Of a stretch of DNA of 61,145 nucleotides, positions 36,121 to 37,381 are shown one piece after another. Below the pieces are notes generated by a model that searched no databases, was not told where the DNA came from, and saw nothing but the letters and a program-made list of their open reading frames with translations. Where the stretch lies: the UHGV virus genome UHGV-0030196; one strand, written 5' to 3'. Within the stretch, counting starts at the first letter, position 1, and each line of letters begins with the position of its first letter. This DNA comes from a virus. A program made the position numbers and the translations under genes.

Positions 36121-36196
36121 GGTGGCCCCTACCGGACTTGAACCGGTGACCGTGCGATTATGAGTCGCCAGCTCTAACCACTGAGCTAAAGGGCCA
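36121..36196 (-). tRNA. tRNA-Ile2 (anticodon CAU, lysidine type)
   Basis: 76-nt cloverleaf ending CCA; anticodon arm GGCGACTCATAATCGC as in E. coli ileX. Confidence 0.8.
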
Positions 36197-36205
36197 GATT
36201 ACTGT

Positions 36206-36334
36206 TAATTCCGCTTACGCTTTTTGCCAGAACCGCGTAAGGCTTTTGCCGCTTGCTCGATCCCATATGCAACCACCAGCAGAAATAAAAATGTCCAACC
36301 AGGGTTCTTATCGGCAAAGGCCCAAAAATCCATC
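36206..36334 (-). CDS. Small hydrophobic/basic peptide (42 aa) next to tRNA-Ile
   Basis: MDFWAFADKNPGWTFLFLLVVAYGIEQAAKALRGSGKKRKRN; not in the track. Confidence 0.15.
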
Positions 36335-36504
36335 ACTTGCAGCTACCTTTTAAGACAAAACGCCATTTCTGTTAGGTTGCGGTGCCGGGTGCCTCCCGGT
36401 GACGTTAACCAGTTAACAATTAACGCCGGATCACTTATGGATTCTCGTTACGCCAGTAAAAAGACCACCTTTACTGTTTTAACTGTTCCGCGTGCGCTTA
36501 GCCG

Positions 36505-37064
36505 CATTCACCGCAATGGTAAGAGCACTTGGCTGGCTGGGCGGCGATGACGCCTGTACGCATTTGGTGATCCGGTTCTGCTTCCGGCATTCGCTTAATT
36601 AGCCAAATACTCTTAACGTTGCACTGGCGGAGAGTAATGGAATCGAACCATCATCGCTTGCGCAATGGGACGGTTTTCAAGACCGCTTGAGCACCATGCT
36701 CCCTACTCTCCAGTGATTGTGATGGTCGGTGCTGAACTCCGACACAGGGTTGTAGCAAGCCCCGCAAAGCGCGCACTACTGTAGTTGCGGCACATCAGCC
36801 TGTGCATTCACCACAATGTTGAGAACACTGGTTGTCACGCTGCAACGCAACATTTATTCGTAGATTGGGATATGACCCCGTTACGCCAGTGTTCTCAACG
36901 TTGTAGTGCCGGTTACGGTTCCGGCCAGGCCTCTTCCTCAACGGGGTGTTCTCCATACGGACTACCGTTTATTGGTCGTTCCTGCGGTTTATGTTGTGAA
37001 GCCAGATGCTTATCTTCTGGTTGCTTCAAAGAGCTGCACTTCATCACAACGGTAAGGGTACTTC
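36505..37064. repeat. Family of ~27-bp repeats between the tRNA genes
   Basis: Copies at 36505..36532, 36804..36830, 36885..36907 (inverted), 37038..37064; the middle two form an ~18-bp inverted repeat. Confidence 0.45.
36625..36711 (-). tRNA. tRNA-Ser (anticodon UGA), type II with long variable arm
   Basis: Acceptor GGAGAGT/ACTCTCC, discriminator G, CCA; anticodon loop CTTGAAA; D-arm atypical. Confidence 0.6.
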
Positions 37065-37127
37065 GTAGGGATTCGAACCCTCTGCCAAGCACGGCGATCT
37101 CCGACGTCGCAAAATACCCTTACCTGT
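37057..37127 (-). pseudogene. tRNA-like fragment, not foldable as a canonical tRNA
   Basis: GGGTTCGAATCCC T-loop plus 10-bp terminal helix but no D or anticodon arm. Confidence 0.25.
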
Positions 37128-37132
37128 TGTGT

Positions 37133-37208
37133 TGGTGCCGGTTAACGGACTCGAACCGCTGACATCCTGCTTACAAGGCAGGCGCTCTACCAACTGAGCT
37201 AAACCGGC
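37133..37208 (-). tRNA. tRNA-Thr (anticodon UGU)
   Basis: 76-nt cloverleaf, anticodon loop CTTGTAA, ends CCA. Confidence 0.8.
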
Positions 37209-37212
37209 AATT

Positions 37213-37299
37213 TGGTGGGGAGTGATGGAGTCGAACCACCCGAGTCGCAATGACAGTAGATTTACAGTCTACCCCGCTACCCCTACGGACTAACTCCCC
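37213..37299 (-). tRNA. tRNA-Tyr (anticodon GUA), long variable arm
   Basis: Anticodon arm GTAGACTGTAAATCTAC as in E. coli tRNA-Tyr; ends CCA. Confidence 0.7.
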
Positions 37300-37304
37300 T
37301 AAAT

Positions 37305-37381
37305 TGGCGATGGTGGGTGGATTCGAACCACCGACCGACAGCTTAGAAGGCTGCTGCTCTATCCTACTGAGCTACACCACC
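37305..37381 (-). tRNA. tRNA-Arg (anticodon UCU, reads AGA/AGG)
   Basis: 77-nt cloverleaf, anticodon loop CTTCTAA, ends GCCA. Confidence 0.75.

Follow-up and report, generated by a model that had tools for sequence, protein, structure and literature searches.

Five transfer RNA (tRNA) genes lie on the minus strand of the virus genome UHGV-0030196 with copies of a short repeat scattered among them, and the question that this locus raises is what the repeats are and what they do beside the tRNAs. We analyzed the whole stretch of 61,145 nucleotides (nt), hereafter called the window, which is a P1/D6-like plasmid prophage. The repeats proved to be parts of an array in which a long hairpin (H) alternates with a multi-stem unit (M) over positions 38248-35779, with at least six copies of each (one M copy, M1, is tentative). 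The cargo at the joints of these modules consists of the tRNA blocks Arg-Tyr-Thr, Ser, and Ile2 and of small open reading frames (ORFs). We read the H-M array as the punctuation of a polycistronic transcript, with junctions that also serve as recombination joints; we give this reading even chances, and the nuclease steps in it are predictions.

The initial annotation, made from the letters of the DNA, had described four repeats of about 27 base pairs (bp), two of them forming an inverted repeat of about 18 bp, and had regarded them as traces of past tRNA duplication or as processing signals. Four copies of 26 nt were indeed found (35880-35905, 36504-36529, 36804-36829, and 37037-37062), the first of which falls outside the span 36121-37381 then considered. 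The inverted repeat also exists, but it is longer than had been proposed, with 23 nt that are 91% complementary (36809-36831 with 36886-36908). The core motif of the repeat gave 2 matches in the window vs. 0.01 expected, all at the array, and every significant match in an nhmmer scan of the window lay inside the array region. On the minus strand, which is the RNA-sense strand, the repeats correspond to the 3' arm of H, which passes directly into the 5' strand of M. The array so defined extends over approximately 35779-38248, well past the original span (Table 1).

The H stems are 18-26 bp long and are interrupted by one or two bulges or mismatches of a single base. Their base is conserved (CACNACAAC...GUUGYGGUG) and much of the remaining stem is common to the copies, often as GGUAAGRG/CYCUUACC, whereas caps and interiors are unrelated between copies. 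H1-H3 were 4-5 standard deviations more stable than shuffled sequences (z = -4.2 to -4.9). In an arms-only alignment of 17 distinct H paralogues and orthologues, 94.5% of cells were paired (37-52% in slid controls) and 12 of 19 pairs showed compensatory changes on both sides, a value reached by none of 500 shuffles. An unfitted MAFFT alignment of seven lineages (the window, D6, PY54, phiNP, Tyrion, HK629, and Sasha) gave closely similar figures, with 94.6% of cells paired and compensatory change in 9 of 22 pairs. The sense strand folded better than its complement in 16 of 18 H hairpins, and five of the seven lineages of the MAFFT alignment kept one U·G wobble of the transcribed strand. Covariation, better folding of the sense strand, and the kept wobble, taken together, indicated that selection acts on the transcript and not on duplex DNA. 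A covariance model built from the arms-only hairpins (R1) recovered only H5, H0, and part of H1, because Infernal copes badly with large variable caps; the H copies were located instead by motif, hidden Markov model, and folding scans. No Rfam 15 family matched H.

The strand GUUGYGGUG that completes H is at the same time the 5' strand of the closing helix of M. A module starts with GUUGYGGUG-AAU, continues with a small arm (GCRC-AGGCUGAU-GYGC or GCGGCUAAGCGC), a variable center, and a second arm (CCGG-AGNUCAGCA-CCGG or CCNGG-AGGCA-CCNGG), and ends with CAYCRCAAC, which pairs with the start strand. Three forms of M can be distinguished, namely beta (STnc100-like), alpha, and short. RNAalifold recovered the closing helix, and in 24 diverse copies both arms too. 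The short copy, M2, showed 80-86% identity to RNA, intergenic or leader, of Sasha and P22-like phages (epsilon34 among them); M1, the weakest member, was read off the sequence by eye and by analogy with the other M copies.

Table 1. Features of the array and its surroundings, listed from higher to lower coordinates.
Feature	Coordinates	Strand	Description
Sigma-70-like promoter match	38559..38587	-	Sole one in the region, upstream of the whole array; consensus match only
Hairpin H0	38181..38248	-	Sense -29.4 vs. antisense -26.0 kcal/mol
Module M0 (beta)	38085..38184	-	GUUGCGG ... GGGGG-AGGCA-CCCCC-GCUGCAAC
Long hairpin, then strong intrinsic terminator	37849..37965	-	Hairpin 37895-37965; terminator 37849-37866
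Hairpin H1	37573..37669	-	Inverted repeat; -53.4 kcal/mol, z = -4.9
Module M1 (tentative)	37382..37465	-	...UGAAUUGCAG ... GCCGG-AGACGUAC-CCGGC-ACAGU; abuts base 1 of tRNA-Arg
tRNA-Arg(UCU)	37305..37381	-	ARAGORN; Rfam tRNA 70 bits
tRNA-Tyr(GUA)	37213..37299	-	ARAGORN and Rfam tRNA model
tRNA-Thr(UGU)	37133..37208	-	ARAGORN; Rfam tRNA 74.9 bits; H2 starts 2 nt later
Hairpin H2	37046..37130	-	-42.1 kcal/mol, z = -4.2; cap holds T-arm-like stem-loop 37067-37081
Module M2 (short)	36993..37050	-	GUUGUGAUG ... CCAGAAGAUAAGCAUCUGG ... CUUCACAAC
Hairpin H3	36809..36908	-	Inverted repeat; z = -4.9; interior conserved in Yersinia phage PY54
Module M3 (alpha)	36716..36817	-	AUUGUGGUG-AAU-GCAC-AGGCUGAU-GUGC ... 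GUCGG-AGUUCAGCA-CCGAC-CAUCACAAU
tRNA-Ser(UGA)	36625..36711	-	4 nt past 3' strand of M3, 2 nt ahead of H4
Hairpin H4	36513..36622	-	Located by folding
Module M4 (beta, STnc100-like)	36376..36517	-	Rfam STnc100 40.8 bits
Small membrane-protein ORF, 43 amino acids	36205..36336	-	Cargo between M4 and tRNA-Ile2
tRNA-Ile2(CAU)	36120..36195	-	ARAGORN
Hairpin H5	35887..35935	-	Model score: sense strand 48.1 bits vs. antisense 21.8
Module M5 (beta)	35779..35893	-	GUUGUGGU ... GGUGG-AGGCA-CCACC-GCCACAAC

One copy, M4, resembled the STnc100 family of Rfam (RF02076), matching positions 31-147 of the 206 of the model with a score of 40.8 bits against a gathering score of 47. Scores elsewhere were likewise below gathering (33.4 bits in P1, and 34.4 and 30.5 bits in two E. 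coli prophage copies). M2 and M3 gave no match to the STnc100 model, which thus leaves the alpha and short forms undetected, and the alpha form matched no Rfam 15 family. STnc100 is among the most frequently annotated bacterial small RNAs (sRNAs). STnc100 and PasD are prophage sRNAs that are reported to associate with Hfq, have targets by RNA interaction by ligation and sequencing (RIL-seq), and flank accessory genes between Q and the lysis genes; STnc100 RNA has in addition been detected in outer-membrane vesicles. M4, M5, and M0 share with them the closing helix, the GCGGCUAAGCGC arm, and the CCNGG-AGGCA-CCNGG arm, and both kinds of element stand in prophage operons beside accessory genes. 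They differ in that the window holds several copies in tandem, each joined to a long hairpin and to tRNAs, and in the partial match and low scores (40.8 and 33-34 bits) with respect to the gathering score. M is therefore related to STnc100/PasD without being a member of the family by the curated cut-off.

Several other identities were considered for these elements and rejected. A second STnc100-like element at ~2700-2950, suggested by shared 9-mers, was a coincidence inside other sequence according to the nhmmer scan. The boxA/nut-like reading of M2 (GCUCUUUGA) failed since the copies of Sasha and epsilon34 do not preserve this stretch. Readings as Y RNA, transfer-messenger RNA, retron, clustered regularly interspaced short palindromic repeats (CRISPR), or type I toxin-antitoxin system were dropped, as there was no Rfam hit or partner gene.

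The likeness to STnc100 raises the possibility that the modules are primarily genes for trans-acting, Hfq-dependent sRNAs of the STnc100/PasD type, which would regulate host or phage mRNAs, their adjacency to tRNAs being incidental. The score of M4, the RIL-seq targets of the two prophage sRNAs, and the occurrence of STnc100 RNA in vesicles are in line with it, and the conserved loops AGGCA, AGGCUGAU, and AAGAUAAGCAU could act as seeds. No M in the window, however, has a promoter or terminator match of its own, the STnc100 model recognizes neither H nor the alpha form of M, and STnc100 itself has no known function; five or six tandem copies on the same strand, each abutting cargo, fit cis elements better. 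We regard a primary role in trans as possible, at about half the weight that we give to the punctuation reading.

The modules are by no means restricted to the window. M4 homologues were present, unannotated, in 4674 of 5426 complete E. coli genomes (~86%), with a median of two per genome. In the K-12-like prophage Qin, M follows the DicF terminator and precedes the dicB start codon, and in the lambdoid phage HK629 the H-M unit separates an HNH accessory gene from the holin gene. Whole or partial units were also found in the late operon of Sasha, between PL and an N-like gene in the P22-like phage epsilon34, between the methylase and holin genes in the N15-like phage PY54, and in phiNP and Tyrion. 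In all these phages, and in a second E. coli prophage, the element was co-oriented with the flanking genes. A 20-base pattern of the H/M junction was retrieved from at least 120 IMG/VR contigs and from 35 GTDB species representatives, nearly all of them Enterobacterales. The pattern occurred as well in contigs labelled Martelella alba and in a metagenome-assembled genome labelled Geobacteraceae; every other match being in Enterobacterales, these look like contamination or mis-binning.

Orientation followed transcription throughout. In 145 further contexts, coverage by long ORFs favored the strand of the element in 70 and the opposite strand in 13. Twenty of these contexts contained tRNAs, 33 of 33 on the strand of the element and typically just upstream of H or just downstream of M, one unit ending 4 nt before a tRNA-Arg. 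A miniature inverted-repeat transposable element or another small non-autonomous transposon was rejected on the basis of this orientation and of the unrelated interiors of the copies. In the literature searched (P1/D6 tRNA region, P1 transcriptomes, and literal sequence strings, the P1 genome paper being outside the search) no description of the hairpin/module array was found. H-M is thus a widespread and largely uncharacterized family of phage RNA modules that organizes tRNAs and accessory genes in long operons.

The same modules mark the places where related genomes differ. When 13 relatives were aligned to the window, all mapped breakpoints coincided with H or M edges. At 37062/37034, an extra M+H unit stood between two copies of the 3' arm of H2 (29 nt); the presence or absence of tRNA-Ser was delimited by 36718, where M3 ends, and by 36536 in the 3' arm of H4; at 36378-36335, after M4, tciAB or an SPFH gene was inserted; and at 35934 (5' arm of H5) the P1-type and D6-type backbones part. 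In some plasmid relatives, an SPFH/Band-7 gene replaces tciA and tciB directly after M4, so this slot is an insertion point for accessory genes.

Such a pattern could also arise if the repeats acted mainly at the DNA level, as a boundary "linker" or as attC-like folded recombination sites for tRNA and accessory cassettes. Breakpoints at module edges, the extra M+H unit with its duplicated arm, and a cargo (tRNA or ORF) that differs between relatives having the same modules would be expected in that case, and H is superficially like an integron attC site, being an imperfect palindrome whose base (...CAAC/GUUG...) is conserved, whose stem has a bulged A, and whose cap varies, placed between exchangeable cassettes. 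The cores of H, (C)ACAAC/GTTGYGG, nevertheless differ from those of attC, RYYYAAC/GTTRRRY: GTTGYGG misfits the R' sequence GTTRRRY, with a pyrimidine at position 5 where a purine is required. The structure of H is moreover conserved, with its G·U pairs, on the transcribed strand, since the conserved U·G wobbles become A·C mismatches on the other strand and the sense strand folds better; orientation strictly follows transcription; and the crossovers lie within 17-29 nt of shared sequence, for which ordinary homologous recombination suffices. P1-like phages are not known to carry an integron integrase, the window itself not having been scanned for recombinases. A primarily DNA-level function is, in our judgment, distinctly improbable.

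An origin of the repeats from tRNA genes was the other proposal of the initial annotation, which had pointed to a degenerate T-arm fragment in the cluster. The fragment is real, AGGGTTCGAATCCCT at 37067-37081 being the only T-arm-like stem-loop in the window beyond the five tRNAs, and it caps H2, stacked on the long stem. Similar caps occur elsewhere, namely TAGAGTTCGACTCTCTA in a further P1-like variant of H2, two in phiNP, and one in 19 of 121 H interiors of other prophages, these 19 comprising 12 different sequences with differing stems, as compared with 0 on the reverse complement and 4 in downstream control segments. These caps, together with the cloverleaf-like topology of M and an arm b that is a true T arm in one copy, would suit decayed copies of duplicated tRNA genes. 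The Rfam tRNA model, however, matched no H or M (at E<=10 for the window and at E<=5 for four loci elsewhere), and similarity extending beyond one arm, as a tRNA pseudogene would have, was found in neither. The arms are conserved and covary across distant phages, unlike those of decaying pseudogenes, and the modules are conserved in unrelated phages with no tRNA nearby (125 of the 145 contexts). Past tRNA duplication was consequently not borne out, and we hold it to be very unlikely, still more so than a function at the DNA level. The T-arm-like caps may be either scars of tRNA insertion or functional T-loop handles.

The proposal of processing signals has the best support: conserved, covarying hairpins on the transcribed strand do abut tRNA ends, and from this arrangement we infer the processing itself. 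In the punctuation reading, the region would be transcribed as one precursor, RNase III would cut the H duplexes, RNase P would cut the 5' ends of the tRNAs 0-4 nt past an M, and exonucleases would trim the short 3' trailers remaining after H cleavage. This would free the tRNAs, separate and stabilize the neighboring mRNAs, and perhaps liberate M and the H caps as small, stable RNA species. The directly oriented junctions of 20-30 nt would double as recombination joints at which tRNAs and accessory genes are shuffled, which would explain the differing content of the relatives.

H is predicted to be an RNase III cleavage site, its stems of ~18-26 bp being of the size of such sites (duplexes of ~20-22 bp, about two helical turns). 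Stems processed by RNase III are found in T7 early RNA and in ribosomal RNA operons. As in these, and in metY-nusA-infB and Qin dicBF, H forms duplexes of at least ~20 bp between the units of one transcript, some copies standing directly after a tRNA; in contrast with the known sites, H has a conserved base sequence and shares a strand with the next module. RNase III accommodates ~22 bp of double-stranded RNA in its valley (PMC6212723), and the metY tRNA is released by RNase III from the metY-nusA-infB transcript according to a reference cited in PMC5371410. The polycistronic dicBF RNA of Qin, a homologous operon that carries M between dicF and dicB, is processed by RNase III as well as RNase E (PMC10448788).

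Several observations weigh against the punctuation reading. In Qin, the mapped RNase III site belongs to another hairpin, upstream of DicF, which could not be mapped onto an H-type hairpin, the fold of that region being ambiguous. H4 and H5 were only weakly better than shuffles (z = -1.6 and -2.0). The pattern with which the large sample was collected fixes the junction sequence, that is, the M 5' strand, and this limits the covariation visible there. A strong terminator (37849-37866) lies upstream of the five tRNAs and a second promoter was not recognized in the region, so a single precursor needs read-through. M-type modules, finally, may act in trans instead of, or besides, in cis, because their STnc100/PasD relatives are reported as Hfq-associated sRNAs.

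Two further properties of the modules bear on how processing might proceed. In eight of eight units, the predicted energies of the alternative pairings of GUUGYGGUG, upstream in H or downstream in M, were only 0.1-5 kcal/mol apart; refolding triggered by cleavage is therefore possible, although speculative. In addition, CCA was found within 5 nt after the closing strand in 28 of 57 distinct M sequences (36 of 57 when the last base of the strand was counted), and lambdoid-type copies had CCA(A) after the closing helix in no fewer than 10 independent contexts downstream. The consensus of M resembles a cloverleaf, and in a copy from another prophage (L072) a true T arm, GCCGGTTCGATTCCGGC, forms the 3' arm. 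The CCA and this layout suggest tRNA mimicry and possible recognition by RNase P. Known cases of tRNA-like punctuation include mitochondrial tRNA punctuation, mascRNA, and the RNase P-processed C4 RNA of P1/P7. M shares with these a closing helix, two arms, one of them abutting the 3' strand, the CCA after many lambdoid copies, and the T-arm-like loops in the H caps, but it lacks similarity to the tRNA model, the copies of the window have no CCA, and cleavage by RNase P is predicted only.

A more far-reaching version would make the H-M arrays an order-wide system of punctuation and cassettes in temperate phages of enterobacteria, with M a tRNA mimic cut by RNase P exactly at the H/M junction, H cut by RNase III, and GUUGYGGUG switching between folds. 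If this were true, M would be a 9-bp acceptor-like helix with two arms and often a 3' CCA; tRNAs, small RNAs (M units and T-loop H caps), and stabilized mRNAs would be released; and, by way of the joints, tRNAs and accessory genes would pass among phages of the P1-like, lambdoid, P22-like, and N15-like types. We consider this whole scheme rather unlikely, slightly more so than a primary role of the modules in trans.

With respect to the tRNAs themselves, ARAGORN found in the 61-kb window exactly the five minus-strand genes, with the anticodons, that had been annotated. The Rfam tRNA model supported four of them (41.9-74.9 bits), and Ser, with its long variable arm, best matched the tRNA-Sec model of the same clan (44.6 bits). 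All five encode the 3' CCA (...NCCA) that is usual for E. coli-type tRNA genes. Of CAU tRNAs, the pairs C4-G69 and C5-G68 mark the Ile2 (ileX-like) rather than the Met type, and both are present in the acceptor stem of this one (GGCCCUU/AGGGGCC), giving it an Ile2-type body. It is identical to P1 trnI, which is annotated as tRNA-Ile2, and 89% identical to ileX. We thus assign it to tRNA-Ile2 and predict the modification of C34 to lysidine by TilS. In the D6 reference (NC_050154; 1914-1989 and 2975-3680 of the region), three tRNAs are annotated on the strand opposite to the ARAGORN calls and the CAU (Ile2) tRNA is omitted, so that the strand and number of the tRNAs are probably mis-annotated there.

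The Tyr and Ser genes are similar to their counterparts in Vequintavirus (rV5-like) phages, in which Arg(UCU) and Tyr are neighbors too; tRNA-Tyr was ~93% identical to that of Vequintavirus EmilHeitz, where it likewise adjoins tRNA-Arg(UCU). The tRNA-Arg of the window was compared with the tRNA-Asn that occupies the same position in Ro157c2, with which it shares 14 of 15 bases at 1-15 and 30 of 31 at 47-77, but 18 of 31 at 16-46, whereas this middle segment shares 25 of 31 with a Vequintavirus tRNA-Arg. Its acceptor stem and T arm are thus of the Asn type, as in the tRNA-Asn placed here in P1, D6, and Ro157c2, and its D-loop and anticodon arm are of the Arg type. The tRNA-Arg is thus a patchwork of an Asn-type frame and an Arg-type core, an Asn gene that turned into Arg through replacement of its core, and it is a clean natural case of a change of tRNA identity by this route.

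The tRNA cluster as such is a known feature of P1/D6-like phages, and its content varies: Asn-Thr-Ile2 in P1, RCS47, and SJ46, Asn-Thr-Ser-Ile2 in D6 and P7, Asn-Tyr-Thr-Ile2 in Ro157c2, and Arg-Tyr-Thr-Ser-Ile2 in the window and seven plasmids. tRNA-Ser was accordingly found in D6 and P7 and missing from P1, RCS47, and SJ46; tciA and tciB are missing from the window. No description of the Arg-Tyr-Thr-Ser-Ile2 variant, which is common in plasmid databases, was found in the literature searched. The initial annotation had attributed the decoding of rare codons to the Arg and Ile2 tRNAs. In E. coli, AGA is used ~2 times per 1000 codons, AUA 4-5, ACA ~7, and UCA ~7 times. The 49 ORFs of the window used these codons at 7.0, 11.5, 15.2, and 13.2 per 1000, respectively, that is, ~2-3 times as often, whereas the Tyr codons were ordinary (UAU 17.8 and UAC 12.6 per 1000). 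The supply of codons therefore fits four of the five tRNAs.

That tRNA-Tyr is left unexplained by codon supply, and that tRNA content turns over fast among close relatives, would be accounted for if the set (Asn, Tyr, Arg, Thr, Ser, Ile2) replaced host tRNAs destroyed by anticodon nucleases or other tRNA-targeting defenses instead of serving rare codons. There are precedents, as phage tRNAs rescue infection from tRNA-targeting defenses, including tRNA-Tyr against a retron effector (PMC10264068, PMC11555353). The enrichment of AGA, AUA, ACA, and UCA in the ORFs of the window, on the other hand, is what codon compensation predicts. Replacement of tRNAs hit by defenses, especially Tyr, Asn, and Arg, is thus a live alternative, although for the set as a whole we rate it at about one chance in four.

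The array occupies a well-defined position in the prophage. The closest match to the region was phage D6 (94.5% identity, vs. ~92% for P1), and 1136 PLSDB plasmids matched it, 113 of them with a query coverage of at least 80%. Locus and strand agree with those of P1 and D6, as do the Thr and Ile2 tRNAs and hairpins H1-H3. In P1, the tRNAs follow the ban promoter and operator, which C1 controls, and precede ban itself, with an annotated "dicF-like region" upstream of the tRNAs and tciA, tciB, and tciC interspersed between them. In the window, the leader between the pmgS-like gene and orf6 (~38620 to 35670, minus strand, ~2.9 kb) is nearly free of ORFs, and it is the counterpart of the leader of the C1-controlled ban operon of P1, a P1/D6-type early operon. 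The 43-residue ORF of Table 1 corresponds to an annotated hypothetical ORF of 132 nt in relatives and is called tciC-like because it stands at the position of P1 tciC, not from protein comparison. M4 stands ahead of this ORF and of tRNA-Ile2, and M5 ahead of orf6.

A GC-rich hairpin followed by a U tract was found in the region only at 37849-37866; the inner stem of H5 gave a weak match to a terminator pattern, in which the T run is the hairpin's own arm. The preceding hairpin of ~70 nt is near-perfect, and the stretch 37849-37965, which precedes the whole set of tRNAs, can be aligned to the 3' portion of the P1 "dicF-like region." The DicF model (Rfam RF00039) gave zero matches in the window, the DicF of Qin scoring 76.7 bits in the same search. 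Two more stable hairpins that do not belong to the H family are present upstream of H0 on the minus strand (38245-38326 and 38477-38552; -31 and -29 kcal/mol, respectively). On the same strand, two motifs containing TGTTAGAAA (~38610-38625 and ~38460-38475) flank the promoter-like site 38559-38587 and may be repressor operators of the D6 type.

Elsewhere in the window, on the minus strand, the stretches 50509-50714 and 11968-12047 gave C4-type matches: C4 antisense RNA (68.8 bits) with its a1/b1 target element (54.4 bits), which marks the immI region, and a second C4-like match of 39.5 bits (below the gathering score of 45). The P1 gene plp (and upl) corresponds to a plus-strand ORF of the window (36785-37162) that lies antisense over H3, H2, and tRNA-Thr. 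This ORF matches its own reverse strand and carries a frameshift or stop in nine of 13 relatives, and plp (and upl) is probably a mis-annotation and not a real gene.

Phage tRNA clusters are usually discussed in terms of codons or defenses, whereas here the tRNAs sit in a conserved RNA scaffold that is common to very different temperate phages. If this scaffold is a unit of processing and recombination, it would provide a testable account of the expression of accessory genes and tRNAs in long phage operons and an explanation of their exchange between phages, and it would give a concrete role to RNAs of the STnc100/PasD type.

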